Notes under the pieces: model-generated | Seen by the model: only the letters and a program-made list of their open reading frames with translations | Database searches by the model: none | Told to the model about the DNA's origin: nothing | Shown here: piece after piece, positions 2,693 through 56,252 of the stretch | Layout of the letters: each line of letters opens with the position of its first letter | How positions within the stretch are numbered: position 1 is the first letter of the stretch | Program-made: the position numbers and the translations under genes | Assembly: GCA_017630405.1 (NCBI GenBank) | Contig: JAGBVH010000007.1 | Location: 6,506 to 70,505, forward strand | Direction of reading: 5' to 3' | Length of the DNA: 64,000 nucleotides | From: Alphaproteobacteria bacterium | GTDB taxonomy: Bacteria; Pseudomonadota; Alphaproteobacteria; Rs-D84

Positions 2693-5110
2693 GTGAAATT
2701 GAAACATCGCATTATTGATTTTCGTTTGTTAACAGCACTTTTTGCTACGCTGATGGCTTCGTCAGCAGTGGTTGCAGACCAGATGCCTAATCCACGCGGT
2801 GGCACAAATACTGTGGCGCGCGGCAATGCTTCAAGCGAGAAAGAACGCGTTGTGTCACGTGTTGCGGATAACACTGTCCATCGTGTGTCGAATGATGCGA
2901 CTGCCCGTGTGGCAAAAACTGTAAAACCTTCTACGACACGTTCGGTTAAGCGTCAAATGACAGCTATATCTAATCGACCAGATGTTGTGACCGCTCGCGT
3001 TGGATCAATAGGTGTGGTGCGCAGTGCGAATCCTGTCCGTAGCACAACAAGTAATGTGGCGCGCAGCGCAACGAATGTTTCTAATGTGTCGCGTGCGGCA
3101 ACTTCACGCGCGACTGCTGTGTTTAGTGATATTTCAAAAATTGGTGGCGGGTACGCAACATGTCGTGATGCCTATGCTACCTGTATGGACCAATTCTGCG
3201 CAAATGCAAATGATACTTATCGCCGTTGCTATTGCAGTCAAAAGTTCACAGAATTTCGTGATACAGAATTGGTATTGGATGAAGCCAAGAGATTGCTTTT
3301 ACAATTCCAAGATAATAATTTGAACGCTGTTGACAAGACCGCGGCCGAGGTTAATGCAATGTATACAGCAACCGTTGGCGAAGCGGCAATTAAAACTGAT
3401 GTTAGTGGCGCACAGTCTGTATTAAATGAAATTGGCGATTTGCTGTCGGGTAAAAAGGCTGTGTCCAAAGAAACATCGGCATCTGCGTTGGGATTGTTGG
3501 ATGTTGATTTTGGTATGGATATGGAAGATATCTGGTCTGGGGGCTCATCGTCTTCATCGATATTTGGTGGTAATGCTACAACTAATATGGCGGATCTTGA
3601 AGGCGCGGCACTGTACAAGGCTGTAAACACTCAATGTCTTGAGGTTGTGGCATCTGCTTGTGAAAACGATGCCGTGTTAAGTATGGCGACCAATTCATAT
3701 AATATTATGATTACACAGGATTGTAATGCCTATGAAAAGAAGGTGAATACTCAGCGCAAGGCCGTTGAAGATTCTGTGCGTCAGGCAGAAAAATATTTGC
3801 GCGAAGCACGTTTGGACGAATATCGCACACATAACAGTGCCGATGTTAATGAATGTGTGGCCAAGGTTCGTAACGCAATTACACAAGATACAGCATGTGG
3901 CACAAACTATGCACGCTGTTTGGATTATTCAGGTGTTTATATAAACTCTACAACTGGTGAACCTATTTATAGCCCTCGCCTGTTTAAATTGGTTGAGTTG
4001 ATTAAACTGGATGGTTCGGCAGATGTTATGGGCCAGAACGCAGACTTTAATAAATTCTTGGATTCTAAACGCATGTTTGCGACAACAGCATTGGATACTT
4101 GTCGTGATCAGGCAGATATTGTTTGGAACGAATTTAAGCGTAGCGCATTGATTGAAATTGCGCAGGCACAAGATGAAAAAATTGAACAAGTAAAAAATAC
4201 CTGTGTGTCAACAATGGCTGAATGCTATGATACGCAATCTGGTGCTTTAAAGGACTTTAGTGACCAAACAGCGGTTGCGGCTGGTGCTGTATCTGCGTAT
4301 GCAGCACGCCAAATGTGCGCTGACAAGGTTTTGACCTGTGCTGCATTGTATGGCGATACTTCAAATTGCAGATTTGATAATAATGGCAAGTTTACAGGCA
4401 ATCAGGGGTCCTGTGGATTAACAGCGTTGTTGAACTTTGTTGATACAGTTGACACAATCAAGATTAATGACAGTTGTGTTGCTGCGTTACAAGAAAACGC
4501 AAATGAAATATGTACCCCAACATCGGGGGATGGCGTTTATCCTTCGGCGTGCTTTAATAAGTCACAAACGGATATTGAAGGAATGGTAACCAATCGTGCC
4601 GAGCTTGTATGTAATATAGCGGATTTTGGGATTTTGGGTAAAGATATGGAGGCAACTATTAGCAGCACCAAAGACGCGATTGTTCAAAACATTAAGGACG
4701 ATATCGAATCCGCATTGATGGCTGAGTGCGAGGCGCAAAATGGTATTTGGTTCAGCCGCGATGTGGTTGGCGGTGAATCAGAAGAAATTGGCCTGTCGAT
4801 TTTGGAGCCAGAGGCATTGTTCTATACCAAACTGTTTGGTGGCTCGGTGCCAAGTAAGTTTACCGCCAATTCATCTGATGTAAAGCAAGCTTATGGTATC
4901 TGTGCGGAAAATTCAATGCGCTATGCGTGTATGAATCAGGATACAATGACCGGTGGTCATGGATATGCTAAATACGATGCCGCAACAAATAGTTGTGTGT
5001 TCACCAGCGAGTGGTACAAATGGCAGTGTGAAAATGTATTGAACGGCTATTTCGAAAATGAAGTATGTTATTGGAACGCAGAAAATGTTGTCGATGGGGG
5101 TAATGAATAA
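2693..5110 (+). CDS. Large secreted cysteine-rich protein, family member A (805 aa), with an Arg/Ser/Thr-rich N-terminal tract
   Basis: GTG start with RBS aagagagag. Signal peptide LLTALFATLMASSAVVA. Low-complexity tract (VARSATNVSNVSRAATSRATAV). Many Cys residues in conserved motifs are shared with the 34473-36947 product. Confidence 0.8.
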   Translation: MKLKHRIIDFRLLTALFATLMASSAVVADQMPNPRGGTNTVARGNASSEKERVVSRVADNTVHRVSNDATARVAKTVKPSTTRSVKRQMTAISNRPDVVTARVGSIGVVRSANPVRSTTSNVARSATNVSNVSRAATSRATAVFSDISKIGGGYATCRDAYATCMDQFCANANDTYRRCYCSQKFTEFRDTELVLDEAKRLLLQFQDNNLNAVDKTAAEVNAMYTATVGEAAIKTDVSGAQSVLNEIGDLLSGKKAVSKETSASALGLLDVDFGMDMEDIWSGGSSSSSIFGGNATTNMADLEGAALYKAVNTQCLEVVASACENDAVLSMATNSYNIMITQDCNAYEKKVNTQRKAVEDSVRQAEKYLREARLDEYRTHNSADVNECVAKVRNAITQDTACGTNYARCLDYSGVYINSTTGEPIYSPRLFKLVELIKLDGSADVMGQNADFNKFLDSKRMFATTALDTCRDQADIVWNEFKRSALIEIAQAQDEKIEQVKNTCVSTMAECYDTQSGALKDFSDQTAVAAGAVSAYAARQMCADKVLTCAALYGDTSNCRFDNNGKFTGNQGSCGLTALLNFVDTVDTIKINDSCVAALQENANEICTPTSGDGVYPSACFNKSQTDIEGMVTNRAELVCNIADFGILGKDMEATISSTKDAIVQNIKDDIESALMAECEAQNGIWFSRDVVGGESEEIGLSILEPEALFYTKLFGGSVPSKFTANSSDVKQAYGICAENSMRYACMNQDTMTGGHGYAKYDAATNSCVFTSEWYKWQCENVLNGYFENEVCYWNAENVVDGGNE

Positions 5111-5112
5111 AA

Positions 5113-6396
5113 ATGTTGAATATTAATAAAATATTTTTATCAGTTTTTGTAATTGCTTCCTTGGGCGTTGCAGGTTCCGCAGATGCCACATGGCCATCGT
5201 CAGTTAAACAAGAAACATGTTTTGCTCATAGCGGTATTTCAGCGATGACAACGCCGACGGGCATGACTTTTGCGCTTGATAGTGATGCTGGCGATCAACT
5301 TGGTATAAATTTTTATCTGGCCCGTGAGCGCTCTGATAATGGGGCCAAGTTTTGCCCTACTCATGTGATGGCTTGGCGTAAAAATTTAAATGGAAGCAAC
5401 AGTCATCCAAGCCTAGAAAAGTGGAATTATTCCCAATGGGGTGAAGATGAATGTTTTTGGGTTTGTCACGAAGGTTATTTTGGGGAAAAATGTAAGGACT
5501 CGAGTACCAACAATACACCCAAAAGTTGTGCAACTAACACGATTGAACTTGTAAGTGGCGAAAATTTAAATAAGGTTGGAAACGATTCAAAATATACCGC
5601 TGTTAGTGATGGTGTTTGGACCAGAACTTGGGATGAAAATTGTAAAAAAACAGACAAGGCCGCACACAAGGAAGCAAAACATGCTGAAACTTGGGCGGTT
5701 AAGCGAGTGACTAAGGATGGCTTTGGCGTGGTCGTACAGAGTCTGCAGTTCTGGGCATATTGTAAACAAAGCACCAAACAGGAAAAGTGCCGTATCAGGG
5801 TACGGCCTGTTGGCGAAGAAATGGTTATGTGTCAAAATGGGTATACGGTCACAACTGACAAGCAGTCGTGTAAGCCTATTGATGTGCGCGCATGTGGACA
5901 GGCGGTAGTTTGTGATGGATGGGATATTTTTGATGATGCGGACCCACAATATAAACGATATCTGGTGGATGGGGACGATTGCTATAAATATCGTTGTGCG
6001 GAATCGGGTTATGGTTTTGCTGGGACTGCTGTTTTGTCATTGGCAGAGAACCGTAAATGTATCGAATGTCCGACTACATATAAGCAAGGCATTTCCGCAG
6101 ATGGCGTTTGTGAAGTTGCAGAGGCTGGCGAGATTTTCTCGAACGGTGAAGTTGGTACAGCGACTGCAACCAATTCGTCTGAAATGTTACAGTGTTGGAA
6201 TGCTGATGATTTTAAGGCCTGTTTGATAACAGGTGCAACGGATACAACATCAACAACAACCGTTGAAAAAGGTTCTGTGGTTAGCCCAATCATAGCCACT
6301 CCTGTTTTAGGGGGTGCGGGATTGCCTAAAAAGGATATCTTGCTTGATTCTGGGAAACAGATTATCAAGGAACCTATTAATAAGATAACGCTGTGA
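5113..6396 (+). CDS. Secreted cysteine-rich protein (427 aa) with EGF-like Cys spacing and a Thr-rich C-terminal tract
   Basis: ATG lies 2 nt after the preceding stop. Signal peptide FLSVFVIASLGVAGSADA. Motif CFWVCHEGYFGEKC. Tract TDTTSTTTV near the C-terminus. Confidence 0.75.
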   Translation: MLNINKIFLSVFVIASLGVAGSADATWPSSVKQETCFAHSGISAMTTPTGMTFALDSDAGDQLGINFYLARERSDNGAKFCPTHVMAWRKNLNGSNSHPSLEKWNYSQWGEDECFWVCHEGYFGEKCKDSSTNNTPKSCATNTIELVSGENLNKVGNDSKYTAVSDGVWTRTWDENCKKTDKAAHKEAKHAETWAVKRVTKDGFGVVVQSLQFWAYCKQSTKQEKCRIRVRPVGEEMVMCQNGYTVTTDKQSCKPIDVRACGQAVVCDGWDIFDDADPQYKRYLVDGDDCYKYRCAESGYGFAGTAVLSLAENRKCIECPTTYKQGISADGVCEVAEAGEIFSNGEVGTATATNSSEMLQCWNADDFKACLITGATDTTSTTTVEKGSVVSPIIATPVLGGAGLPKKDILLDSGKQIIKEPINKITL

Positions 6397-6425: not shown

Positions 6426-6509
6426 ATTGCGTGATTTTCTTAAACTTTCGTTTTTGTTTAGTTTTAATTAATTCATTAGAGTTTATTTAAGAAAATGTGT
6501 CTATTGCCA

Positions 6510-9692: not shown

Positions 9693-10832
9693 ATGACCAA
9701 AAAAGCAAACATGGGTAAAATCAAACGCTCGACAGACGATATGATTGACGATGCAATCGCACAGCAGAATGATTGGCAGGAAAATCGCAGAACCTATACA
9801 CGCGGATTTTTGAAATCCCTTAATATGTTCGCTCGTCCTTCGGCAAAAAAAGTAGAAAGTCAATCTGAGGCAAAAATAGAAGTTAAAGAAGCGCGTAACA
9901 ACAAGACCGGTGTAAAGGCATACTGGTTCCCTATTATGTGCGCACTGTTTGTTATCTTTATGGTCATTTGGTTGGTGTTTATCGGTGTTCATCGCGAACC
10001 ACGCGTGTTGGCGGTGCCAAATATTCCAGAACCAACCGTTCAGCAGATAAAAAAATATGAAACACCAAGTTTTGATATCGTTCGTATCCAGCATGATGGC
10101 AGCATTGTTGTTGCAGGTCGCTGGAAAGCGAATACTAATGTTTCTGTATTGGTTAATAATAAAGTTGTATCAACACAACGCACAGATGAAAATGGCGAAT
10201 TTGTATATGCGCCAACCACACCTTTTGCGGCGGGCAACTATACATTTGCCTTGTTGGGTACTGACCCAGAAGTAAAATCTGATGACAAGGTGTTTGTTTA
10301 TGTTTCCGAACATGGATATAAAAACTCGTTGTCTTTGTTGATGACCAAAGATGGCAGCACTTTGTTGCAGGGTCCATACTTGTTAAAAGATGGTGATTTG
10401 ACAGTATCAAAAATCGACTATCTGGATTCGGGTCGTATGATTGTCACAGGTACTGCGTTGCCAAGATTGCGTGTATCAATGATTTTGAATCATAAATATT
10501 TGGGCTTTGCACGCGTGTCCGATTACAGAAACTTTGGACTGGGTGCGGATATTGGCGATTTGGAGCCAGGCAAAGAATATGAATTAATTGTTCGTCTGCA
10601 CGATGGTGCCGGTCGCACAGTTGCAAATATCATACACAAATTTACAGCACCTGAAATGACTGGTGATGACGACACATTTTATACTGTTCGTCGTGGCGAC
10701 TGTTTGTGGGTAATTGCACGCAACTTTATGCGCCGCGGCATCTTGTTCAGCATCATCGCAGAACGCAATAATATTGAAAATCCTGATTTGATTTTCCCAA
10801 AACAGAAATTACAAATTCCAGTAATAAAATAA
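9693..10832 (+). CDS. Membrane-anchored LysM peptidoglycan-binding protein
   Basis: ATG 9693 has RBS agagg 6 nt upstream. One TM segment (AYWFPIMCALFVIFMVIWLVFIGV). C-terminal LysM (YTVRRGDCLWVIARNF...LIFPKQKLQIP). Confidence 0.8.
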   Translation: MTKKANMGKIKRSTDDMIDDAIAQQNDWQENRRTYTRGFLKSLNMFARPSAKKVESQSEAKIEVKEARNNKTGVKAYWFPIMCALFVIFMVIWLVFIGVHREPRVLAVPNIPEPTVQQIKKYETPSFDIVRIQHDGSIVVAGRWKANTNVSVLVNNKVVSTQRTDENGEFVYAPTTPFAAGNYTFALLGTDPEVKSDDKVFVYVSEHGYKNSLSLLMTKDGSTLLQGPYLLKDGDLTVSKIDYLDSGRMIVTGTALPRLRVSMILNHKYLGFARVSDYRNFGLGADIGDLEPGKEYELIVRLHDGAGRTVANIIHKFTAPEMTGDDDTFYTVRRGDCLWVIARNFMRRGILFSIIAERNNIENPDLIFPKQKLQIPVIK

Positions 10833-10853
10833 ACAACAGCAAAGGTAATAAAC

Positions 10854-11480
10854 ATGCCATATAAGAATATAGAATTGCGTCGTCAGCGTGGTCGCGAAAG
10901 ATATCTGCGTCAACGCGAAGAACGTCTGAAATATGCACATGAGTATTACATGAAAAATATCGATGAAATGCGTGAAAAGAATCGCGTTCGCGCACATGAA
11001 AGTCGCGACAAATACAAGGCAAGAATACAAGCGTATCTTGAAAAGAATAAAGAAACAAGAAACGCAAAATGTCGCGCATATTATCACGAGCACAAAGATC
11101 GTTTGGCCGCACGCGTCAAAGAATATCATATTGAACATCATGATGAAATTGCTTTGAAACGCGCCCAGGCAAAAGCAGAATTGCGCAACGCACGCCAAAT
11201 GTGCCCTGCTTTCAAGTTTGTTGATAAGATACGTTTGGCCAATCCAGAACTGTACATGACCAAATATCGCATTGGTTCTAATTTGGCACATAAGGCCGCC
11301 AAGACATGCGTAGCAATTGTGGCGGGCGATTATACATTGTGCCCGATTTGTAGCAACTGCACTATGTCTGGCAAAGAAATGGAATGTAAATGTCCAATGC
11401 CAAATGTATTTGAATTCGAAAACGCTGTATCTGAAATCCGTCAGCGCGCTGCAGATATCGTTATGGCTAATCAGAAATAA
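10854..11480 (+). CDS. Basic repeat protein with Cys-rich C-terminal domain (paralogue of 11914-12915)
   Basis: Reiterated basic R/K..Y..(E/H)(H/N) units (RERYLRQREERLKYAHEYYMKN...RAYYHEHKDRL...KEYHIEHHDEI). The C-terminal MCPAFKF..LY(M/L)TKY..C.. block is shared with the downstream paralogue. Confidence 0.65.
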   Translation: MPYKNIELRRQRGRERYLRQREERLKYAHEYYMKNIDEMREKNRVRAHESRDKYKARIQAYLEKNKETRNAKCRAYYHEHKDRLAARVKEYHIEHHDEIALKRAQAKAELRNARQMCPAFKFVDKIRLANPELYMTKYRIGSNLAHKAAKTCVAIVAGDYTLCPICSNCTMSGKEMECKCPMPNVFEFENAVSEIRQRAADIVMANQK

Positions 11481-11484
11481 AATC

Positions 11485-11904
11485 ATGACACCAAAAGAAA
11501 TAACTTCGTTATTGGCATCGCTTGAGAAAAACTCTGGGCAGTTAACTAAAAAGCATTTGAAAAAGATTTACGCCCTGTTGATTGCAAGCGGTCAATTTCC
11601 GGTCTGTCCTTGGTGCCTTGAGTATATTTATAACATTAACGATTTTACATGGGATCATATAGTTCCCAAATCCTGTGGTGGCACAGACGACCTTTCAAAT
11701 CTGCAACCAATGCACAAATCGTGTAATAACGAGATGAAACAACATTTTGTTTATACTACTGAATATAAGTATGATATTTGTGAGGCATTGGAACAAGATA
11801 TCAAAAAAGAGCGTGCTAGTTCCTGTAAGAAACAGGTTGACGAAACCAACAAAAAACATACTAAAGAGCGTTATAAAAACACTAAACGCGGCAAATGCCG
11901 ATAG
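11485..11904 (+). CDS. HNH endonuclease
   Basis: CPWCLEY...FTWDHIVPKSCGGTDDLSNLQPMHKSCNNEMK, a CxxC plus DH..N..N HNH core. ATG 11485 lies 5 nt after the preceding stop. Confidence 0.8.
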   Translation: MTPKEITSLLASLEKNSGQLTKKHLKKIYALLIASGQFPVCPWCLEYIYNINDFTWDHIVPKSCGGTDDLSNLQPMHKSCNNEMKQHFVYTTEYKYDICEALEQDIKKERASSCKKQVDETNKKHTKERYKNTKRGKCR

Positions 11905-11913
11905 TTTATTAAC

Positions 11914-12915
11914 ATGAAATCTTCTGATTTAAAATCATGGTTGAACAGTGGGGCGCACATTATTTATGCGACCACTGGCAGACCATCCAAACATGTGAGC
12001 ACACTGGCGGAAGTGTTTCTGGAATATTATCTGTTTGATGCGGACACACCAAAAACAATCGAAGATTTCTTAACCACCGAAGAACTAAACGATGTTTTTA
12101 CAGCAGACCAGATTATGAATCTGATGTGTGGGCGCGCATGTTTACACAACGATTTAGTCAGCCTGATTCATACTAAGTTGCCGTTTGAAATAAGCCTTGG
12201 GCGACTGTACAAATTAAATGCCAATGCATTCTTGATGGGGGCGGCCGAAATATCCCCCGCCGAGATGGTAAATCTGTCCAAGAAAGAAACTGAAGAAAAA
12301 CAGAAAAAGAAACGAGAAACCAAAGCTGAATACAATCGTAGATATCGTGAAAAACACGCCGATAAAATTAAACAGCAACAGAAAGAATATTATCAGGCCA
12401 ATCGCGAACAACGATTGGCGCGTGCGCGTGCGCGTTATGCTGAAAATCCCGAAACTTTTAGTGCCAGATTACATACATACTATGTGACACATACCGAAAA
12501 ATGTCTGGCGCGTGACAGAAAATATCGACAAGAAAATCATGAGCACATTTTACGCCGTAATCGCGCCTATCGTATCGCCCATCCAGATTCTAATAAAGAA
12601 AACTATCAAAGAATTAAAGCGCGTAAAGAATTAGCCAAAACAATGTGTCCGGTCTTTATGTATATTTGTGAATTGCGCGCCACGAACTTGGAAAAATATC
12701 TGACCAAATATAAAAAAGTTCAGGATATCGCGGGTCAAGCAATCCGCGCTGGCTGTGTGGCACTGGGCAATCAGGACATAACACAATGCCCGATTGTAAT
12801 GGGTGGTGTTTCAAAGCGCACACAATGTCAAATGCAATTGGCGTTTGAATTTCGTGGAGCGGTCGGTCGTGTGGCACAAATCGCCCAAGAAATTAAAGCA
12901 AATCAAAAACACTAA
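11914..12915 (+). CDS. Basic repeat protein with Cys-containing C-terminal domain (paralogue of 10854-11480) plus a unique N-terminal domain
   Basis: RRYREKHADKIKQQQKEYYQANREQRLARARARYAENPE...YYVTHTEK...; MCPVFMYICELRATNLEKYLTKYKK aligns with MCPAFKFVDKIRLANPELYMTKYRI of the first paralogue. Confidence 0.65.
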   Translation: MKSSDLKSWLNSGAHIIYATTGRPSKHVSTLAEVFLEYYLFDADTPKTIEDFLTTEELNDVFTADQIMNLMCGRACLHNDLVSLIHTKLPFEISLGRLYKLNANAFLMGAAEISPAEMVNLSKKETEEKQKKKRETKAEYNRRYREKHADKIKQQQKEYYQANREQRLARARARYAENPETFSARLHTYYVTHTEKCLARDRKYRQENHEHILRRNRAYRIAHPDSNKENYQRIKARKELAKTMCPVFMYICELRATNLEKYLTKYKKVQDIAGQAIRAGCVALGNQDITQCPIVMGGVSKRTQCQMQLAFEFRGAVGRVAQIAQEIKANQKH

Positions 12916-12975
12916 AAGTCACGCCCGAATTTATTCTGGACATTTGTTTTTGTTTTATATAGAATCACACTCATC

Positions 12976-13049
12976 GCGGGCGTAGTATAATGGTAGAACG
13001 AAAGCTTCCCAAGCTTTAGGCGAGGGTTCGATTCCCTTCGCCCGCACCA
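12976..13049 (+). tRNA. tRNA-Gly (anticodon CCC)
   Basis: Acceptor gcgggcg pairs with cgcccgc. Anticodon stem aaagc/gcttt with loop ttCCCaa. T-arm gggttcgattccc. Encoded CCA. Confidence 0.9.
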
Positions 13050-13056
13050 AGAATTC

Positions 13057-13079
13057 AACCGGCATCTCGCCGGTTTTTT
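13057..13079. terminator. Intrinsic terminator after tRNA-Gly (also abuts the stop of the convergent 13078-13680 gene)
   Basis: Stem ccggc, loop atctc, stem gccgg, followed by TTTTTT. Confidence 0.7.
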
Positions 13080-13680
13080 AATACTTCTGTCGTTGATGAC
13101 GACGGTTCATTTCCAATTGCTGGACGGCATTTTTATACTTGCTCACAAGTTTTTGCATTTTGGGTTCGCCGTACAAGGATTTCCAGTCGATAGTATAATA
13201 CTGTTTGTCATAGGGATAAGGATTATGACGAACCAAATAATCCTCGCCGTGATATTTCACAAAGCGATTAATGCGGCTGGCATATCGGACAGAATCACGC
13301 TTAGCTGTTTCTGGTTGTATCAATTCGTAATCTGCTAGATTCAATGAATTTGTGGTTTTTATAGCATCTGCATATGCTGCGGTTAAAATTTCTTTGGTTG
13401 CCTTTGGTGTTGCATCTCGAACTTTCTTGGGCACATAAAGTAAAGTTCCATACAAACCAATCATAGAAACGATAATAAAAGCAGCCAGAACCGCCATTGT
13501 TTCCATTCGTTCTTCGGCTTTGCGCTTTTCTTTCAATTCCTGTACAAATCTGCCGTCACAATCAGAAGACGTTTTTCTTAAACCCCTAAAACGGCGACTG
13601 TGTTTTGGTTCGTTTATTTCTTTATAATGTCGCATCGCCATTATGGCTGCGACCTTTCGTCCCGTATTCATTACCACCAT
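13078..13680 (-). CDS. Hypothetical single-pass membrane protein (200 aa)
   Basis: One TM segment (MAVLAAFIIVSMIGLYGTLLYV). Basic N- and C-termini. No recognisable family. Confidence 0.5.
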   Translation of the reverse strand: MVVMNTGRKVAAIMAMRHYKEINEPKHSRRFRGLRKTSSDCDGRFVQELKEKRKAEERMETMAVLAAFIIVSMIGLYGTLLYVPKKVRDATPKATKEILTAAYADAIKTTNSLNLADYELIQPETAKRDSVRYASRINRFVKYHGEDYLVRHNPYPYDKQYYTIDWKSLYGEPKMQKLVSKYKNAVQQLEMNRRHQRQKY

Positions 13681-13751
13681 TTCTTTTCCTTTGACTTTAA
13701 TTTTTTATTTATTCCTAGTATAGTACGCCATGGATTTTTTGCAATAAACAT

Positions 13752-13780
13752 TTGACTTTTTTGATTTTTTGGGTCATAAT
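13752..13780 (+). promoter_or_regulatory. Sigma70-like promoter upstream of rpsP
   Basis: TTGACT (13752-13757), a 17 nt spacer, then CATAAT (13775-13780). This implies a leader of about 130 nt. Confidence 0.4.
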
Positions 13781-13916
13781 GGGGTCGCAAATCCCAAAGA
13801 TTGCCATTATTATAAAACCAGTTCGCAGTATGCGTGTGGTACATCAACCGGCGAGTTTCGCTCTTGATGGCGGTTTTCTTTGTGGTTAAAACAGTTAATA
13901 AAAAAGGAGCAAAATT

Positions 13917-14366
13917 ATGGCAACTGTTATTCGTTTGGCACGTCATGGTGCAAAAAAACGCCCATACTATCACATTGTTGTGACAGATTCACGCAACGCA
14001 CGTAATTCGGGCAATGTTTTGGAAGTCGTTGGTAAATATGATCCAATGCAGGCAAAAGACAGCGATAAACGCGTAATCTTGAAAATGGATGAAGTCAAAG
14101 CTTGGTTGGCAAAAGGGGCCCAGCCTTCTGACCGCGTGTACAAGTTCTTGGCAAAAGCTGGCTTGGTAAAAGCAAAGGCTATCCCAGTTCAGACAAAGAA
14201 ACACTTGCAGTCTGAAAAGACTTTGATGAAAATCAAGGACAAAGCTGACAAATTAGCTAAAATCGCAGAAGAAAAAGCCGCCGCAGAAGCAGCAGCCAAG
14301 GCTGCAGCAGAAGCTGAAGCAGCCGCACCTGCAGAAGAAGCACCAGCAGCAGAAGTTGCAGAATAA
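13917..14366 (+). CDS. rpsP: 30S ribosomal protein S16 with Ala/Glu-rich C-terminal extension
   Basis: MATVIRLARHGAKKRPYYHIVVTDSRNARNSG..., then the tail AAAEAAAKAAAEAEAAAPAEEAPAAEVAE. RBS aaggag. Confidence 0.95.
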   Translation: MATVIRLARHGAKKRPYYHIVVTDSRNARNSGNVLEVVGKYDPMQAKDSDKRVILKMDEVKAWLAKGAQPSDRVYKFLAKAGLVKAKAIPVQTKKHLQSEKTLMKIKDKADKLAKIAEEKAAAEAAAKAAAEAEAAAPAEEAPAAEVAE

Positions 14367-14382
14367 TATATAATTTTGCCCT

Positions 14383-14427
14383 GCCCGATATGCTGGATTG
14401 GTATAATTTCGGCATGTCGGGCTTTTT
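14383..14427 (+). terminator. Long hairpin plus T-run after rpsP (terminator or attenuator inside the S16 operon)
   Basis: gcccgatatgc (14383-14393) pairs with gcatgtcgggc (14412-14422) with one G-U, followed by TTTTT. Confidence 0.55.
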
Positions 14428-14449
14428 GCAACTGATAAAGGAATTGAAC

Positions 14450-14785
14450 ATGGCGATTACCGACAAGTATTTGATAAATCCTGATGTGGAATTATATGCG
14501 GTTGATAACAAAATGGTTACAACTGCACCATGCGTACATAAGGATGGCGCACCTGACGCAGATTTAGACTGCCCATATGATGGCACATATTGCAGACAAA
14601 AAGAATGTCGATTAATCAAGTGGAAAAAGTCTGTAGAATATCACGCAACACATAAAATAGATAATCTGATAGTTACAAGTGCGAACATGTTCGAAGGTTG
14701 CCCTTTGGGTTCACGCGAACGCTATTGTATTCGCAAGATTCGCTATGAAAAAATGATTCAGGAATTAAGACACCATGTTAAATAA
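14450..14785 (+). CDS. Hypothetical Cys-containing protein (111 aa) between rpsP and rimM
   Basis: ATG 14450 has RBS aaaggaa upstream. The ORF overlaps the rimM start by 11 nt. Six Cys residues. No KH-domain similarity. Confidence 0.5.
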   Translation: MAITDKYLINPDVELYAVDNKMVTTAPCVHKDGAPDADLDCPYDGTYCRQKECRLIKWKKSVEYHATHKIDNLIVTSANMFEGCPLGSRERYCIRKIRYEKMIQELRHHVK

Positions 14786-15236
14786 TAAAATCTTGGTTGG
14801 GAAAATTGTCGCGCCACAGGGAATCCGTGGCGAGGTTCGTATTCAGACATATTCTGATGCGCCAAGCGACTTTAAAAAGTTCAAGATAATCAGCGACAAG
14901 TTTGTATCTGACGACTTTAAGTTTGTGCGCACGGTGCCAAATTCTACTGTTATAATCGCAAAAATTCGCGGTGTTGATGACAGAAATACAGCAGAAATGT
15001 TGCGCGGAACACAACTGTTTATTGGGCGCGGCGATTTGCCGGAATTAAAAGAAAACGAATATTACCAGACTGATTTAATCGGAATGAGTGTCAATCAGCG
15101 TGGCAATATCATAGGACGCGTTTCCTGTGTCCAGAACTATGGCGCGGGAGATATCTTGGAACTGGAAAATGGTGACATGGTGTCGTTTGTCGGCGCAAAG
15201 GTTGATTTTGATACAGGTGTTATCTATATAAACTAG
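14775..15236 (+). CDS. rimM: 16S rRNA processing protein RimM
   Basis: KILVGKIVAPQGIRGEVRIQTYSD...YYQTDLIGM, a RimM N-terminal domain plus a PRC barrel. Lies in the canonical operon position. Confidence 0.85.
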   Translation: MLNNKILVGKIVAPQGIRGEVRIQTYSDAPSDFKKFKIISDKFVSDDFKFVRTVPNSTVIIAKIRGVDDRNTAEMLRGTQLFIGRGDLPELKENEYYQTDLIGMSVNQRGNIIGRVSCVQNYGAGDILELENGDMVSFVGAKVDFDTGVIYIN

Positions 15237-15278
15237 TGCGGGCAATGGGGAACGCAGATAAAAAAGGATAAAAAGATT

Positions 15279-15566
15279 ATGAAAAAAGATAAGAAGGTTG
15301 TTTTTAAATTTGAAGGTACTAGCAAGGGCTTTTCAACAGCATGCACAGCCAAATTTGACGCACCAACTGTTCCTTGTTCTACATTAAAAATGTATAAAAA
15401 TGGTGTGGACAGCAAAGTTGTTGTCGCTGTCAAAGAAGATACGGAAGTAAGCATACTTATGCCGGATTACGCACGCAGCGCAGAAACAATTGAAACTATG
15501 TGCGGTTTGGGCCAGGCTTTCTGTGGCCTGTGTCAGTTCAAGGCAATTAAAGGTCGTCAAAAATAA
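15279..15566 (+). CDS. Small Cys-motif protein, array member 1 (95 aa)
   Basis: RBS aaaaggataaaaag. Motifs C-x10-C (ACTAKFDAPTVPC) and C-x6-C-x2-C (MCGLGQAFCGLCQF) are shared with the next two ORFs. Confidence 0.6.
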   Translation: MKKDKKVVFKFEGTSKGFSTACTAKFDAPTVPCSTLKMYKNGVDSKVVVAVKEDTEVSILMPDYARSAETIETMCGLGQAFCGLCQFKAIKGRQK

Positions 15567-15580
15567 GCGCGAGGTAACAA

Positions 15581-15865
15581 ATGGCGACAACAAATGTAAT
15601 TATCAGTACAATCAATCACGATAAAGTGCGTGTTTGCAAGTTGCCGAACACATCAGAAGAACTTCGGAATTGCCCTTTGCGCAGATTCCAGGGGCTGAAC
15701 GGTATCACATATCGTGAAACGACACAGGAAGGCAGCGGATTGCGTAAGGTACATATTGGCGCAGATATGAGTTCGGACAACGCTTGGTTGACTGTGGACT
15801 GTTTGTACTCGGTTGCTAAATACATATGTAAACACTGTGAATACAACAAAGAAAAACAGAGATAA
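15581..15865 (+). CDS. Small Cys-motif protein, array member 2 (94 aa)
   Basis: RBS gaggtaac. VCKLPNTSEELRNC, then DCLYSVAKYICKHCEY. The Cys spacing matches members 1 and 3. Confidence 0.6.
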   Translation: MATTNVIISTINHDKVRVCKLPNTSEELRNCPLRRFQGLNGITYRETTQEGSGLRKVHIGADMSSDNAWLTVDCLYSVAKYICKHCEYNKEKQR

Positions 15866-15867
15866 CT

Positions 15868-16158
15868 ATGGCAAACAGCACAGAAATAACTTTTCGTTTC
15901 CAAAGAACACCACTGACATTAAAAGTGAACTGCTGTGCTGATTTTGACACACGAATTAAAGATTGTTGTGTGATACGCACTTGTGCAAACTGTGGCACAA
16001 AGGTTGCTCTTTATCAGAATGCGCCAAATTTGGTCGATATTGATACGGGACAAATTTTTAACCTGGAAGATTGTGTTAATATCGAGCATTTTCAGAAAGC
16101 TTGCAGTGCAATGTGTAAAATCTGTCAGTTTAACGCGTGTAATACCAAGGTAAAATAA
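15868..16158 (+). CDS. Small Cys-motif protein, array member 3 (96 aa)
   Basis: ATG lies 2 nt after the previous stop. NCCADFDTRIKDCC, then ACSAMCKICQFNAC. The stop lies 3 nt before trmD. Confidence 0.6.
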   Translation: MANSTEITFRFQRTPLTLKVNCCADFDTRIKDCCVIRTCANCGTKVALYQNAPNLVDIDTGQIFNLEDCVNIEHFQKACSAMCKICQFNACNTKVK

Positions 16159-16161
16159 CAA

Positions 16162-16848
16162 ATGCATTTTAACATATTGACCATTTTTCCAGAAATGTTC
16201 CCTGGCACCCTGTCAGGTGGCGTGGTTGGACGCGCACTGGATAAAAAGATTTGGTCGTATGATGTTATTAATATTCGCGACTTTGCCATAAATAACTATG
16301 GCAGTGTTGATGATACTCAATTCGGTGGTGGCGCAGGTATGGTTATGCGACCAGACGCACTAGGTGACGCATTGGATTCTATCAAAAACAAGGGCAAGAT
16401 TATCTATTTTTCACCACGCGGACCACGCCTTGACCAGAAAATGGTGCGCGATTTTGTGGTCGATAATGATGCGACATACACCCTGCTCTGTGGTCGATAC
16501 GAAGGAATTGACGAGCGAATCATCGAAGAATATGATATAATGGAACTTTCCATTGGTGATTACATACTGTCAGGTGGCGAAATCGCCGCGCAAGTTTTTG
16601 TTGACAGTTGCGTTCGTCTGATGGATAATGTGGTCCACGGTGGGACTGAGACCACCAATAACGAAAGTTTCGAAATCGGCGGGTTGGAATGGCCGTTATA
16701 TACCCGTCCGTCAGTATGGCGTGGACGAAGCGTCCCAGAAGTCCTGCTGTCCGGTCACCACGGCAATATCGAACGGTGGCGGAAACAACAATCGGTTGAC
16801 ATAACAAAAGAACGTCGACCGGACTTAATAAAGGAAAATGAAAAATGA
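16162..16848 (+). CDS. trmD: tRNA (guanine37-N1)-methyltransferase
   Basis: [15 protein letters not shown]...[11 protein letters not shown]...[11 protein letters not shown]...[11 protein letters not shown], the TrmD SPOUT signatures. Confidence 0.95.
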
Positions 16849-17237
16849 GCATTATTAAAAAAATCGAAGCAGCCCAGGTTGCTAAACTGCAGGGCGACAA
16901 AAAAATCCCAAACTTCAAAGCTGGGGATACATTGAAAGTTCACGTTAAAATTAAAGACGGTGACAAATTCCGTATCCAGATGTTTGAAGGTGTTGTTATC
17001 GCACGCGATGGCGGCATGGGAAATAATGCATCCTTTACAGTACGTCGTGAATCTTATGGTGTTGGTGTAGAACGCAAGTTCCCACTGTACAGCCCAGCAA
17101 TCGAAAAGATTGAAAAGGTTCGTATCGGTAAAGTACGTCGTGCTAAATTGTTCTTCCTGCGTGGTCTGTCAGGTAAAAAGGCGCGTATCGTCGAAGACTT
17201 GGCTGCTACATCTGCAGAAAAGAGCGCAAACAAATAA
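16845..17237 (+). CDS. rplS: 50S ribosomal protein L19
   Basis: [36 protein letters not shown]...SFTVRR...[15 protein letters not shown] overlap with trmD. Confidence 0.95.
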
Positions 17238-17240
17238 TAA

Positions 17241-17262
17241 ATCCGCTTCGGCGGATTTTTTT
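17241..17262 (+). terminator. Intrinsic terminator after rplS
   Basis: Stem atccgc, loop ttcg, stem gcggat, followed by TTTTTT. Confidence 0.8.
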
Positions 17263-51627: not shown

Positions 51628-51660
51628 TTATAACCTTTGTGCCTATTATAACTTAAAAAC

Positions 51661-51689
51661 TTGCAATTTCCAGTCTAAAAGAGTATAAT
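51661..51689 (+). promoter_or_regulatory. Consensus sigma70 promoter of ssrA
   Basis: TTGCAA (51661-51666), a 17 nt spacer, then TATAAT (51684-51689). Confidence 0.7.
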
Positions 51690-51695
51690 TGATGG

Positions 51696-52037
51696 GCCAC
51701 GCGAGTGGTGATGATTCTGAAGCCTTTGTGCAATAGTCATTTTGGACTGGGGGGCGGTACCCCACAGCTCCACCATTATTTGATATGATTTTTGGTCGTA
51801 TTTGATTATGGGGCTGACATAGATTCGACAGATGATGAAAGACAAAATGGTTGAATCCGACATGGTGTCGTTAAAAACCAACTAAAAACTGAATGGCGAT
51901 AGAATCGCTGCGAACGACAATGTTCGCCTTGCAATGGCTGCCTAATATGGCGTTGAATACGGTTGGCGATTGTTAGCCGTGTTCGTTTAAGCAATTGCGG
52001 GGTTTGCCGGTACCTGGCACCAGAAATCCGGCGTTTT
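51696..52037 (+). ncRNA. ssrA: Circularly permuted (two-piece) tmRNA gene: acceptor piece to 51775 (..CAGCTCCACCA), spacer, then coding piece from 51810 (GGGGCTGA..)
   Basis: The 3' acceptor strand cagctcc-a-cca (51765-51775) lies upstream of the 5' strand ggggctg (51810-51816). Together they form a 7 bp acceptor with G3-U70. agattcgac D-analogue. Tag ORF GCG AAC GAC AAT GTT CGC CTT GCA ATG GCT GCC TAA (51910-51945) encodes ANDNVRLAMAA. Terminator hairpin at 52006-52037. Confidence 0.85.
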
Positions 52038-52382: not shown

Positions 52383-54143
52383 ATGAAACAATATATTTTA
52401 CCACTTCGCGATTTAGTCGTACATCCGTCACTGACAGTGCCGGTGTATATTGATAATCCTGTATCTGTCGCCTGTATCGAGGCTGCCATGAACGCGGACC
52501 GCCGTGTGGTGCTGGTTCCACAGCACAGTTGGGCGTATCCTGCGACCGTTGAAGACATATACTACATTGGAACAATTGGCGATATTGTTCAGGTTCTGCG
52601 TATGCCTGATGGGGCCGTACATGCGATTGTAAAAACGACTGGCGTTGTGGCACTTAATGACACGACTGTTCAAAACGGAATCTTTACCGCAGATATCAAC
52701 CCGATTGAAATCGCAGACGACATGGAAAGCGAGACAACCATTGCTTTGCGCGATAAAATCGCAGACTGCCTGCAGACAATTGCTGCTAGTATTCGCAAGT
52801 TCAAAATGGAAAAACTGCGTAATGTTATCCAGAACTATCCCCTGCCCGCGTTTGTGGATTCTGTAGTTGAAATGGCCGACATCGACACAGACAATGCACT
52901 TAAGATTTTGTGTGCCCCTTCGTGGCAGGACAAAATGATTCTGTTGCTGGAACAGGTAAAATTACTTAGCGAAACATTTAAAATCGAAGATTCTATTAAC
53001 CGCCGTATTCATCAGCAAATGGAAAACGGCCGGCGCGAGGCTATATTACAAGAAAAAATGCGCGCCATCCAAAAGGAAATGGGCGAAGATTCTGAAGAAA
53101 TGGATTCGGAAAATATGCGAAAAAAGATTCAGAAGTCCGCTATGCCAACCGAGGCTAAAGAAAAAGCAATGAGCGAGTGGAAGCGTATGCGCTCTATGTC
53201 ACCTATGTCCAACGAAGGTGGATTGCTTAAAACATATTTGGACGAATTGCTGTCTATGCCTTGGGACAAATCTGATAATACGCCGATTGATTTGAATAAT
53301 GCGCGTGAAATTTTGGATTCCCAACATTCTGGGATGCGTGGGGTCAAAGAACGCATACTGGAACATATTGCGGTGATGAAAAAGACTGGCGGCAATCAGG
53401 GCACTATTCTGTGCTTTGTTGGTGCGCCAGGTGTTGGGAAAACATCGCTGGGTAAATCAATCGCTGCGGCATTGGGCCGAAAATATCAACGCATTTCATT
53501 GGGTGGCATATCAGACGAGGCGCACTTCCGCGGCCATCGCAAAACATATATCGGCGCACAAACTGGGCGTATTATGGATGCGCTTAAACGCTGTAAGTCA
53601 AACAATCCCGTCATTGTTCTTGATGAAATTGATAAAATGGGACGTGATTGGCGCGGAGACCCTGAATCTGCGCTGTTGGAAATTTTGGATCCAGAACAGA
53701 ACAAGACTTTCCGCGATCATTATCTGGAAGTGGATTTTGACCTGTCCAAGGTTATGTTTATCGCGACCGCAAACAGCCTTAACCTGTCTAACGCTTTAAA
53801 AGACCGTATGGAAATTATCGAAATTCCTGGTTATTCTATGGACGACAAAGTTCAAATTGCACGCGAACATTTGATTGGACGCGCAGCACGCGACACGGGC
53901 TGGAATACTGACGACATTATTATTTCCGATGATGCGTTGCGACACATTATTCAAAAATATACCTCGGAACAAGGTGTGCGCGAAGTTCAGCGCGAACTGA
54001 CTGCTATTTTGCGCCGCGCTTTGTTGGAAAATAACTGCGTGGACACAAAAACAGAATTTACAAATGAAAAAATTGACCAGTTGTTGTCTGTGCGTCAATC
54101 TGCTGGATTTTCCAAAAAAATAGGATTTGGGGTGCACGCATAA
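52383..54143 (+). CDS. lon: Lon N-terminal plus AAA+ domains without the proteolytic domain (586 aa)
   Basis: ILPLRDLVVHPSLTVPVYI (Lon N-domain), GAPGVGKTS (Walker A), VIVLDEIDKM (Walker B) and EQGVREVQRE (sensor 2). The ORF stops at ..SKKIGFGVHA, where the Ser-Lys protease domain would begin. Confidence 0.85.
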   Translation: MKQYILPLRDLVVHPSLTVPVYIDNPVSVACIEAAMNADRRVVLVPQHSWAYPATVEDIYYIGTIGDIVQVLRMPDGAVHAIVKTTGVVALNDTTVQNGIFTADINPIEIADDMESETTIALRDKIADCLQTIAASIRKFKMEKLRNVIQNYPLPAFVDSVVEMADIDTDNALKILCAPSWQDKMILLLEQVKLLSETFKIEDSINRRIHQQMENGRREAILQEKMRAIQKEMGEDSEEMDSENMRKKIQKSAMPTEAKEKAMSEWKRMRSMSPMSNEGGLLKTYLDELLSMPWDKSDNTPIDLNNAREILDSQHSGMRGVKERILEHIAVMKKTGGNQGTILCFVGAPGVGKTSLGKSIAAALGRKYQRISLGGISDEAHFRGHRKTYIGAQTGRIMDALKRCKSNNPVIVLDEIDKMGRDWRGDPESALLEILDPEQNKTFRDHYLEVDFDLSKVMFIATANSLNLSNALKDRMEIIEIPGYSMDDKVQIAREHLIGRAARDTGWNTDDIIISDDALRHIIQKYTSEQGVREVQRELTAILRRALLENNCVDTKTEFTNEKIDQLLSVRQSAGFSKKIGFGVHA

Positions 54144-54520
54144 TGGTAAAAACAAAAAACTTTGTTTTGAACGGTAAAAATGTTGCGATTCCAAACGACA
54201 AGAAATTGTTGGAACAAATCGAACGATTCCAAAAGATTGAACAATATGCGCGCGCACAGGAAAAACTGACCATAAAAACAGCCGAACAACAATCAAGAAA
54301 CCATCCAGATAAACGCGATTTTATTATCCAAGCAGATACTGACAAATATCAAATAACTGCTATTAACTCTGCGGTTCCAACTTCACTGTTGCTGCTGCGC
54401 GGGGATTCTTGGGATACTATGATACAGGACAAAGCTGATAATTCTGTTGTGATAGAAGATGGTGCAGTTGCTGGATTGTACTTTGAACTGTTGAATCAAT
54501 TAAAGGAAATACATAAATGA
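54143..54520 (+). CDS. Hypothetical protein (125 aa) occupying the position of the missing Lon protease domain
   Basis: TAATG overlap with the lon stop and ATGA overlap with tsaB. No similarity to the Lon protease domain. Confidence 0.5.
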   Translation: MVKTKNFVLNGKNVAIPNDKKLLEQIERFQKIEQYARAQEKLTIKTAEQQSRNHPDKRDFIIQADTDKYQITAINSAVPTSLLLLRGDSWDTMIQDKADNSVVIEDGAVAGLYFELLNQLKEIHK

Positions 54521-55056
54521 TTCTGATTATCAATACTTCGGGCGGGAATTTGGAATTTGTATTGGATGGACAATACAAATCTGTTGCTGTGGAAAAACAG
54601 TCTGTTGCCCTGCCTGCAGAATGTGAAAAGTTTATTACCGAGTGCGGCACAAAATGGTCCGACATTGATGCAATTGGTGTGGTTGTAGGACCAGGTAGTT
54701 TTACTGGCATTCGCCTTGGCATCGCATATGCCAAAGGAATTGCAATGGGGCTGAATATACCTGTGGTTGGAATTAGTTTGTTTGATTTATATTTGGCCGC
54801 CACACCAGATGCTTTTGTTGCGATTGATTCTGGTCGCGGCGATTTCTTTGTAGCCGCAAATGGATTAGCACCACAAACAATGGAAATAGAAGAATTAGAG
54901 ACAAAACAAATGGAATGGCCACGCACCGTTGGGCACAGACCTTTTGATTTGAGGCTGGGGGTAAATATCGTAAAAGAAAAAATAGCATCTGGGGATTTGG
55001 CGCCTGTTGTGCCAATGTATTTACGCCCCAGTTATGCCGAGCAAAACAAAAAATAA
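54517..55056 (+). CDS. tsaB: tRNA threonylcarbamoyladenosine biosynthesis protein TsaB
   Basis: ILIINTSGG...IDAIGVVVGPGSFTGIRLGIAYAKGIAMGLNIPVVGIS. Confidence 0.85.
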   Translation: MILIINTSGGNLEFVLDGQYKSVAVEKQSVALPAECEKFITECGTKWSDIDAIGVVVGPGSFTGIRLGIAYAKGIAMGLNIPVVGISLFDLYLAATPDAFVAIDSGRGDFFVAANGLAPQTMEIEELETKQMEWPRTVGHRPFDLRLGVNIVKEKIASGDLAPVVPMYLRPSYAEQNKK

Positions 55057-55068
55057 AGAGAAAATAAT

Positions 55069-55440
55069 ATGACTAAAGAATTTTATACAAAACACAAAGA
55101 TGAGATTGAAAAAGCCATTAAAAACGCGACTGTGTCATATAATATGAATTCCAGTAAAAATGGAAAAGTTGCTGTACATGTTTATGACATCGCAACCAAG
55201 AAAGTTTGTATTTCTGTGTTAGCGGTTAAAAATCGTGAAAACCACATAACATCTAAATATATTCTTAAAATCACCGTTGCCCATGACACAAAGGCAAAAA
55301 AAGAATTCGCAATCACCAAAGATACCGGACATTACGCATGCAGGTTGTTTAATACTTTATCAGCAAAACATGACGCGCAAATCGCAAAAACACAGCTGAA
55401 AAAGAACTTTGACAATCAAGCATTTAAAATGAAACGCTAA
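55069..55440 (+). CDS. Small protein, array member 0 (123 aa; divergent relative of the next three ORFs)
   Basis: RBS aagagaaaa. Similar size to the next three ORFs. The C-terminal pattern GHYACRLFNTLSAKHD parallels DTDFAYRVYEKMMREHE. Confidence 0.5.
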   Translation: MTKEFYTKHKDEIEKAIKNATVSYNMNSSKNGKVAVHVYDIATKKVCISVLAVKNRENHITSKYILKITVAHDTKAKKEFAITKDTGHYACRLFNTLSAKHDAQIAKTQLKKNFDNQAFKMKR

Positions 55441-55462
55441 CTTGTGAGCAAGAGGTTTGATA

Positions 55463-55864: not shown

Positions 55865-55865
55865 T

Positions 55866-56240: not shown

Positions 56241-56252
56241 AGGAACAATAGC

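Follow-up and report, generated by a model that had tools for sequence, protein, structure and literature searches.

The gene cluster rpsP-rimM-trmD-rplS is among the most conserved in bacteria, and the locus described here raises the question of what three small open reading frames (ORFs), designated O1, O2 and O3, represent that lie between its rimM and trmD genes. The locus is part of a 64,000-nucleotide stretch of DNA (referred to below as the window, i.e., positions 6,506 to 70,505 of the forward strand of contig JAGBVH010000007.1, assembly GCA_017630405.1), and all positions are those of the window. In GenBank the three ORFs appear as three 'hypothetical proteins' in a row. They are members of an undescribed protein family with four invariant cysteines (Cys4), here named family B, which is restricted to one genus, occupies one site and varies in copy number. 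A preliminary description of the window, made from the sequence alone, had reported three same-strand ORFs of 94-96 aa between rimM and trmD, as is borne out by their coordinates and by the Pfam matches of the flanking genes. The cluster is arranged as follows:

13752-13780: promoter-like sequence, TTGACT-17-CATAAT, 5' of rpsP
13917-14366, + strand: rpsP (bS16), first gene of the cluster (PF00886, E 2.5e-23)
14383-14427, + strand: terminator/attenuator-like hairpin with a 15-bp stem and U5, directly 3' of rpsP
14450-14785, + strand: orfX, a member of a second family (family A) in the rpsP/rimM junction (A-family profile, E 2.9e-29)
14775-15236, + strand: rimM (PF01782, E 2.2e-15; PRC barrel, E 3.8e-5)
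15279-15566, + strand: O1, 95 aa, family B subfamily K, Cys22/33/82/85 (GenBank MBO5833456.1)
15581-15865, + strand: O2, 94 aa, family B subfamily J, Cys19/31/83/86 (GenBank MBO5833457.1)
15868-16158, + strand: O3, 96 aa, family B subfamily O, 11 Cys including the invariant Cys22/33/83/86 (GenBank MBO5833458.1)
16162-16848, + strand: trmD, starting 3 nt past the O3 stop (PF01746, E 8e-44)
16845-17237, + strand: rplS (bL19) (PF01245, E 1.2e-42)
17239-17258, + strand: closing terminator-like hairpin, 8-bp stem AAATCCGC/GCGGATTT followed by TTTTATT

The spacers from rimM through O1, O2 and O3 to trmD measure 42, 14, 2 and 3 nt, respectively. The exact sequences of O1-O3 were seen again on 6-11 independent contigs, and the three ORFs are therefore not an assembly artefact. 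The base composition of the array is the same as that of its surroundings, and scans of the region returned no Rfam family except a tRNA-Gly at 12976-13046, and no meaningful repeat.

Pairwise comparison relates O1 to O3 (BLASTP, E 3e-5), and O2 gave no significant pairwise match to either of them. All ORFs from the rimM-trmD gap of 80 related loci (L001-L080) were therefore not only clustered by BLAST, but the resulting clusters were also compared as profiles by means of hhalign, which unites three clusters (of 63, 15 and 5 members) with 94% probability over about 85 columns. Homology was also assessed using hidden Markov models (HMMs) built without each ORF's own subfamily, with shuffled sequences as controls. 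The HMM of the 63-member cluster, which has no relative of O1-O3 inside, gave scores of 13.4 bits for O1 and 18.6 bits for O2, values equalled by none of 300 shuffles; the same test failed for O3. When the HMM was built from the K, I and G subfamilies, with O-type and J-type sequences left out, O3 scored 23.4 bits and O2 21.4 bits, and none of 500 shuffles of O3 attained the O3 score. These tests indicate that O1, O2 and O3 belong to one family, and all three display both the family signature and the profile similarity by which membership of family B is defined. The paralogy that had been proposed for the three ORFs is thus substantiated by the HMMs and by hhalign, the pairwise signal being weak, and to judge from their sequences they are anciently diverged paralogues that are about 10-25% identical.

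What the family has in common is in essence its cysteines. Four Cys columns are invariant in an alignment of 83 members, giving the signature C-x5-11-C-x43-57-C-x2-C, in which the first spacing has a mode of 6 and amounts to 10-11 in the ORFs of the window. The proteins are about 85-110 aa in length, and the final Cys is located a median of 9 residues before the C-terminus. Mean column identity in a 78-sequence alignment is about 20%; beyond the four Cys and some hydrophobic positions there is little column conservation, and the alignment contains no conserved run of 7-10 columns. The Cys motifs quoted in the preliminary description are present and their four core columns are conserved in 78-83 homologues, so that the conservation of the Cys columns in related genomes, put forward there as a test, was indeed found. 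The additional upstream Cys of its 'C-x6-8-C-x2-C' motif is not conserved, and the core consists of four Cys, not five.

The distribution of the family was analyzed in the relatives of the window's host. The TrmD of the window shares 85-94% identity with its counterparts in 80 species-level genomes, most of which are named Candidatus Enterousia or are metagenome-assembled genomes labelled 'Alphaproteobacteria bacterium', from animal and human guts, and the host of the window is Candidatus Enterousia, an alphaproteobacterium of order Rs-D84. Enterousia, of order Rs-D84, has genomes of about 0.75-1.0 Mb and is fermentative, without a tricarboxylic acid (TCA) cycle and respiration (PMC12306168); that paper is concerned with genome reduction only, and no other Enterousia title retrieved deals with these genes. 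A literature search on rimM, trmD and zinc returned nothing relevant.

In 860 kb of related DNA from these 80 species, all 88 family B matches are located in the rimM/trmD junction, two seeming exceptions, which overlap the end of rimM, being due to start-codon artefacts. No further copy is present elsewhere in the 64-kb window, nor was any found in 164 kb around tsaB on 30 metagenome contigs. Family B is present in 61 of the 80 loci, with 0-7 copies each: one copy in 44 loci, two in 13, three in 2, five in 1 and seven in 1, which places the three copies of the window in the upper tail of the range. The junction is empty in 9 species, and in the 78 loci with both genes the distance between rimM and trmD is anywhere from 6 bp to about 2100 bp. 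The scatter of empty junctions over a coarse tree of trmD+rplS suggests repeated loss.

At 38% identity the family divides into at least 22 subfamilies, whose order within an array is shared within clades (D-R/S-B, M-N, G-C' and A-P-H-Q); the order K-J-O is found in the window and in its nearest relative, L003. Neighbours of the same subfamily also occur, i.e., H-H in L007 and, for a non-B family designated X', X'-X' in L072, and such adjacent copies point to tandem duplication in place.

Much larger collections were searched as well. With O3 alone as query, only its own 95%-identical cluster was retrieved from 5.8 billion proteins; a word-indexed profile search returned 26 proteins, and a full HMMER search of 1.84 billion representative proteins returned 17 genuine relatives and one spurious repeat protein. 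The distant members P0004, P0039, P0040 and P0041 lie directly after rimM and, where the contig reaches that far, directly before trmD, and their hosts possess a TrmD that is at least 85% identical to that of the window in every case, and about 90-92% identical wherever the contig includes the greater part of trmD. No homologue outside the genus was found in the protein searches. Family B is a resident family that expands and contracts and is restricted to the genus Enterousia and to one junction. The search of related genomes for the same arrangement, which had been recommended in the preliminary description, thus located the family at the same junction in 0-7 copies, and does not agree with the view, also expressed there, of an 'insertion' in one genome, given its presence in 61 of 80 related species and the 9 empty junctions.

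In some clades the rimM/trmD junction harbors families other than B (L050, L052, L053, L059-L061, L070, L074, L077, L078 and others). These include family C', of about 100 aa and with the Cys pattern WCSCVYTCDQF...DATCP, and family D', a short Cys4 family of 62-66 aa. A 409-aa protein is encoded in the junction of two species (L033/L034, 4770-5999), and L072 carries an apparent fusion of a C' domain to a B-like domain (4514-5185). On the short metagenome contig L085, an 83-aa Thioredoxin_3 protein (PF13192; 561-812) is encoded upstream of rimM, where it and an ORF that reads as kinase-like in sequence replace rpsP and family A, while a B-family gene follows rimM.

The family B genes evolve as constrained protein-coding genes. 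Relative to L003, the ratio of nonsynonymous to synonymous substitution rates (dN/dS) is 0.086 for O1 and 0.081 for O2; for O3 it is 0.245, a value based on few substitutions. Within subfamilies the median is 0.18 over 90 pairs, with no pair above 0.48; for the same species pairs the medians are 0.13 for rimM, 0.07 for trmD, 0.05 for rplS and 0.04 for rpsP. These low values indicate constraint at about the level of rimM.

Comparison with L003 over 10100-16900 furthermore reveals a mosaic of identity: 54-70% at 10800-12800, 97-100% over orfX and the start of rimM (14400-14900), 68-82% over O1 and O2 (dS 1.5-2.0), 98-99% over O3 (dS 0.05) and 81-87% over the start of trmD. Such a pattern is indicative of frequent homologous recombination among Enterousia lineages. 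A 200-aa ORF on the - strand of the window at 13078-13680 is absent from L003. RimM is 52-81% identical to that of the window in all loci but the nearest relative (95%), one partial contig-end match being excluded, as against 85-94% for TrmD and 83-98% for bL19 in L001-L080, and the median dS of rimM (1.12) exceeds those of the other three core genes (0.39-0.65). Higher RimM identity accompanies the sharing of related B subfamilies (K, I and J), an association seen in the sequences that could reflect linkage within recombination blocks or co-evolution.

No described family was found to account for these proteins, in line with what had been proposed for them. Neither O1-O3 singly nor 78 family members scanned individually matched Pfam, and NCBIfam returned no match for family B; PHROGs gave nothing significant (best E 0.02), PADLOC no match for O1-O3, orfX and four other B-family members, and the PDB sequences no significant match to the family profile (best E 0.28). 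A Foldseek search with a model of O2 likewise returned no significant match, the best E values being 0.32 against the PDB and 0.028 against BFVD. A match to a phage or mobile gene family, which the preliminary description had named as an observation that would speak against its reading, was absent from the phage, plasmid, PHROGs and BFVD comparisons: no match was obtained from 50,697 phage records (blastn and tblastn) or from 72,556 plasmid records (tblastn).

Several specific candidates were also considered and rejected. The proteins are unlike zinc-ribbon or treble-clef domains in having a single CxxC, predicted to lie inside a long helix, and a first Cys pair 5-11 residues apart, and no Pfam, NCBIfam or PDB match supports such an assignment. 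A KH domain of the YlqC/UPF0109 type was dismissed since O1-O3 and orfX have no KH match at E values up to 1 and none is among the family-wide Pfam matches listed. A relationship to the mitoribosomal protein mL53 and the L51_S25_CI-B8 domain was rejected on the basis of an hhalign probability of 0.8% against a reference alignment of NDUFA2, MRPL53, MRPS25, MRPL43 and the plant mL53 fragment. Phage morons or mobile cargo were discarded in view of the lack of phage or plasmid homologues and the confinement to one junction, and polymorphic-toxin immunity or a known defence system because no toxin or defence gene adjoins the array and PADLOC returned no match.

The array nonetheless resembles a number of known systems in part. 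In the Bacillus-type operon rpsP-ylqC-ylqD-rimM-trmD-rplS, the small genes ylqC (a KH-domain protein, UPF0109) and ylqD occur; like the family B genes they are small accessory ORFs of unclear function that are embedded and co-transcribed in the same conserved operon, but they are located between rpsP and rimM, are single-copy and widely conserved, and have a KH fold and no Cys4 site. The ribosomal proteins bL31, bL33, bL36, uS14 and bS18 (with their C+/C- paralogues) are likewise small, basic, Cys4 metal-binding proteins with paralogous copies and a translation-gene context. These zinc-ribbon proteins, however, have two CxxC knuckles on beta-hairpins, in contrast to the C-x5-11-C and single helical CxxC of family B, and they occur universally; family B, by contrast, is dispensable, is limited to a single genus and has no sequence or fold match to them. 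Haloarchaeal genomes encode many paralogous one-domain zinc-finger proteins of the C(P)xCG type, mostly of unknown function, which are comparable as numerous small Cys4 proteins within one lineage, but these are archaeal, are scattered over the genome, possess two CPxCG knuckles and have no detectable homology to family B. Orphan immunity-gene arrays of polymorphic toxin systems are similarly tandem, small, cytoplasmic and deeply diversified, with copy numbers that vary between close relatives, but they are located behind a toxin gene and as a rule combine unrelated folds with toxin-tip fragments, whereas the family B array consists of one homologous family with no toxin or defence gene nearby. 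Finally, integron cassette arrays share the promoterless, co-oriented and packed small ORFs, the variable number and the upstream promoter, yet the family B array has no attC and no integrase, and its members are all homologous and never found elsewhere.

With respect to the form of the proteins, no hydrophobic N-terminal segment and no signal peptide were seen in the sequences of O1-O3 or of family B, which suggests a cytoplasmic location. Family members have a median isoelectric point (pI) of 9.2; the pI exceeds 9 in 63% of them and is below 7 in 6%, and the values for O1, O2 and O3 are 9.2, 8.9 and 8.0. An AlphaFold2 model of O2, obtained from 39 sequences, has a predicted local distance difference test score (pLDDT) of 72 and a predicted template modelling score (pTM) of 0.59. 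It comprises short N-terminal strands, of which a short one (19-21) opens with Cys19, two helices (25-29 and 32-38), with Cys31 just ahead of the latter, two further strands (42-48 and 55-61) and a long helix (68-93) that bears Cys83 and Cys86. The model of O1 is poor (pLDDT 53). With moderate confidence, family B proteins may thus be described as small alpha/beta proteins of about 90 aa that reside in the cytoplasm. The invariance of the four Cys argues for metal binding, and it may be proposed, again with moderate confidence, that four thiols contributed by three structural elements form one structural metal site, probably for Zn2+; Zn binding by O1-O3 themselves is plausible on these grounds. 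An affinity for RNA or the ribosome is likewise plausible in view of the basic pI and the operon context.

The manner in which such genes might be expressed can be read from the arrangement of the locus. Of the ribosome-binding sites that had been ascribed to the three ORFs, Shine-Dalgarno (SD)-like motifs are present before O1 (AAGGA, 10 nt before the start) and O2 (GAGG, 7 nt before the start). Between a family B stop codon and the next start the median distance is 4 nt, and it is at most 15 nt in 73 of 94 cases, which suggests translational coupling. A terminator scan found no terminator-like site from rimM to rplS, its loop limit being 3-8 nt, probably the reason why it missed the hairpin after rpsP. 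As had been surmised, the array can therefore be co-transcribed with rimM, trmD and rplS, with which it forms a tightly packed, terminator-free stretch.

The hairpin after rpsP (14383-14427) has a predicted free energy of -28.7 kcal/mol (z -4.8), and no shuffled sequence was as stable. By eye, a GC-rich hairpin with a T-run is seen at the same place in most related loci, with differing stem sequences, and it is probably a conserved attenuator between rpsP and the downstream genes. Such a strong hairpin followed by a U-run implies that the genes beyond it are probably read by partial read-through.

A further feature of these small genes concerns their 3' ends. C-termini of the form (Q/E)-K-x-(R/K) are common to unrelated gap families (for example at 15850-15867 and 15552-15566, and in L001-L080). 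The underlying codons are purine-rich (AAA-CAA-AGA-TAA, with Arg encoded mostly by AGA or AGG) and the next ATG follows 0-5 nt on. A role of the K-Q-R/K tail as a secretion or recognition signal was considered and rejected, since the tail is more simply explained as a constraint placed on the C-terminal codons by the SD sequence of the downstream gene.

The rimM/trmD junction is not the only one of its kind. The rpsP/rimM junction contains family A, to which orfX, not mentioned in the preliminary description, belongs; all 87 of its matches are in this junction, at 0-3 copies per species. Its invariant Cys are C41, C48, C84 and C93 within the motif CPYD-x4-C ... CP-x8-C (70 sequences), and it has no known relatives and no Pfam or PDB match. 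The ATG at 14450 is preceded by AAGGA 8 nt upstream and is probably the start of orfX, since an earlier ATG, at 14390, falls within the hairpin stem. A third junction is found elsewhere in the window, between the following two genes:

54517-55056: tsaB (PF00814)
56596-56982: rimI (GNAT)

Between them (55069-56606, + strand) are four ORFs without a Pfam match, three of which are paralogues of a family designated S, with the N-terminus MAN(I/F)FQK(I/F)F. The tsaB-rimI spacer measures between -7 and about 1700 bp in 22 related contigs; family S has 19 matches in this junction and none around trmD. The preliminary description had regarded this as a second array of the same theme, interrupting tsaB-rimI: the array does exist and arrays of small ORFs do recur, but family S is without a Cys motif and is unrelated to A and B. 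At each of the three junctions (rpsP/rimM, rimM/trmD and tsaB/rimI) a different resident family expands and contracts.

Upstream of tsaB, a 125-aa ORF without a Pfam match (54143-54520, + strand) lies between tsaB and a Lon-like gene (52383-54143); a homologue was detected in only 1 of 30 related contigs, the lon-tsaB spacer ranges from about 0 to 720 bp, and lon-tsaB may be a fourth variable junction. Two other features of the window are a two-piece (permuted) alphaproteobacterial transfer-messenger RNA at 51657-52035 (+ strand), with the tag peptide AANDNVRLAMAA, which helped to assign the host taxonomically, and the segment 59450-61300, a stretch of about 1.9 kb that follows tRNA-Met and has no long ORF, no Rfam match at gathering thresholds and a G+C content slightly above that of its surroundings.

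Taken together, the explanation to which we incline, with slightly better than even confidence, is that the site-bound family B of Enterousia supplies metal-stabilized accessory modules that act on the co-expressed translation-maturation machinery, from an array with coupled expression and turnover. In such a protein an N-terminal strand would end in the first Cys, the second would follow 5-11 residues on at the start of a short helix, and two further strands would lead to the long C-terminal helix bearing Cys3-x2-Cys4, so that a structural Zn2+ held by the four thiols would pin this helix to the sheet. Having no promoter or terminator of their own, O1-O3 would be transcribed together with rimM, trmD and rplS, and their translation would be coupled, each stop being followed within a few nt by the next start. 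Turnover would proceed by in-place tandem duplication, clean deletion and allele swaps through homologous recombination between Enterousia lineages, a component proposed with moderate confidence. Candidate partners would be either RimM with the 30S head or TrmD with tRNA, in a role that would be accessory and dispensable; taken by itself, the idea of accessory binding modules that serve this machinery is a suggestion made from sequence and with low confidence.

A number of points weigh against this explanation. The 9 empty junctions and the copy range of 0-7 indicate that the genes are dispensable, which fits a core ribosomal role poorly, and species without B genes exhibit no compensating RimM extension or Rosetta-stone fusion. 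The flanking genes at all of these junctions serve translation, but the presence of unrelated site-specific families at the other junctions weakens the argument from operon context alone, and the location may reflect where a genome of less than 1 Mb can express new genes rather than what they do. Part of the basic charge is probably due to the purine-rich K-Q-R tail imposed by the downstream SD sequence, and the hairpin and U-run after rpsP probably keep expression of the array genes below that of rpsP. Furthermore, the structure models are only moderate (O2) or poor (O1), and we infer, rather than observe, metal binding, expression and partners.

The main rival explanation holds that the proteins form a repertoire for conflict or partner interaction, i.e., immunity- or antitoxin-like proteins, anti-phage decoys or effectors acting on a host or partner, which merely uses the constitutively transcribed essential operon for its expression. 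The tandem arrangement of small, cytoplasmic proteins, deeply diversified on a fixed scaffold, would be in keeping with this, as would the unrelated arrays at other junctions and the variable copy number; the dS of 1.5-2.0 for O1 and O2, compared to 0.03-0.4 around them, resembles that of loci under balancing or diversifying selection, and the reduced genome of less than 1 Mb belongs to a host that is presumably partner-dependent (PMC12306168). We nevertheless consider such a repertoire rather unlikely, since no toxin, secretion or defence gene stands beside the array, no PADLOC or PHROGs match and no signal peptide were seen, selection within subfamilies is purifying (no pair above a dN/dS of 0.48), and one family at one site across a genus is atypical of immunity or defence islands. 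The array is not a toxin-immunity island, given that its flanks are rimM and trmD. That the four Cys instead bind iron, in a rubredoxin-like or Fe-S center, or include a dithiol pair, the proteins then being electron or thiol carriers, appears improbable: a CxxC is among the invariant Cys and the host is an anaerobic fermenter, but the weak Fer4-type Pfam matches in 4 of 78 members (best E 0.018) fall well short of the Pfam thresholds and mirror nothing but the spacing of the Cys, no rubredoxin, ferredoxin, thioredoxin or glutaredoxin profile matches, and 0-7 deeply diverged copies would be unusual for a redox carrier.

Still more doubtful is the proposal that the genes are functionless hitch-hikers at permissive operon junctions, kept because their deletion endangers essential neighbours. 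Species with an empty junction show no visible cost, the same behaviour is seen at three or more junctions whose families are unrelated, and homologues outside the genus are lacking, all of which would be in keeping with hitch-hiking; a dN/dS of 0.08-0.25 (median 0.18), near that of rimM, is contrary to it, as are the invariance of four Cys where overall identity has dropped to about 20% and the retention of the family in 61 of 80 species despite strong genome reduction. Two last alternatives are given almost no weight. Mobile DNA that landed between rimM and trmD, be it integron-like cassettes, a phage moron or another insertion, would account for promoterless, co-oriented, packed ORFs of variable number, which superficially resemble cassettes, but spacers of 2-14 nt are too short for an attC and repeats are absent, so that the array does not consist of integron cassettes. 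There are no flanking or inter-ORF repeats and nothing integrase-like in the flanks, no phage or plasmid match was obtained, Foldseek returned nothing against BFVD at E of 0.001 or below, and the family is never found away from its junction and is like its surroundings in composition. Equally remote is the notion of a kinship between these bacterial proteins and the thioredoxin-like proteins mL53, mS25, mL43 and NDUFA2 of the mitoribosome and complex I. Its appeal lies in the alphaproteobacterial and ribosomal context and in plant mL53 being the best PDB sequence match of the family profile, with two N-terminal Cys aligned, although at a non-significant E of 0.28. The hhalign probability mentioned above argues to the contrary, as does the absence of PF05047 and PF10780 both from the 25 commonest of the 34 weak Pfam matches of the 78 members and from those of O1-O3; in addition, no mitoribosomal protein is among the best 50 Foldseek matches against the PDB (best E 0.32), and in the reference alignment the mL53 Cys pair is in helix 1 and not at the end of strand 1.

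A bolder proposal, which we consider speculative and improbable as it stands, is that families B, A and S are all rapidly diversifying add-ons that bind or modulate the enzymes, or the ribosomal or tRNA substrates, encoded beside them, with A and B representing as yet unseen Cys4 metal-binding folds. If true, each Enterousia species would carry its own repertoire of translation add-on factors. In a lineage with a genome of less than 1 Mb, two junctions of a highly conserved operon hold genus-specific families of Cys4 mini-proteins, which evolve under purifying selection, were met nowhere else in the DNA covered, and are unannotated (named no more than 'hypothetical protein' so far) and without a Pfam or PDB sequence match, family B being also without a fold match in the structure search. 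Should these proteins act on the translation apparatus, this would be a rare instance of a core machine with lineage-specific, fast-diversifying add-ons; otherwise, the loci would show where and how a minimal genome invents, expresses and turns over genes inside essential operons by means of translational coupling.

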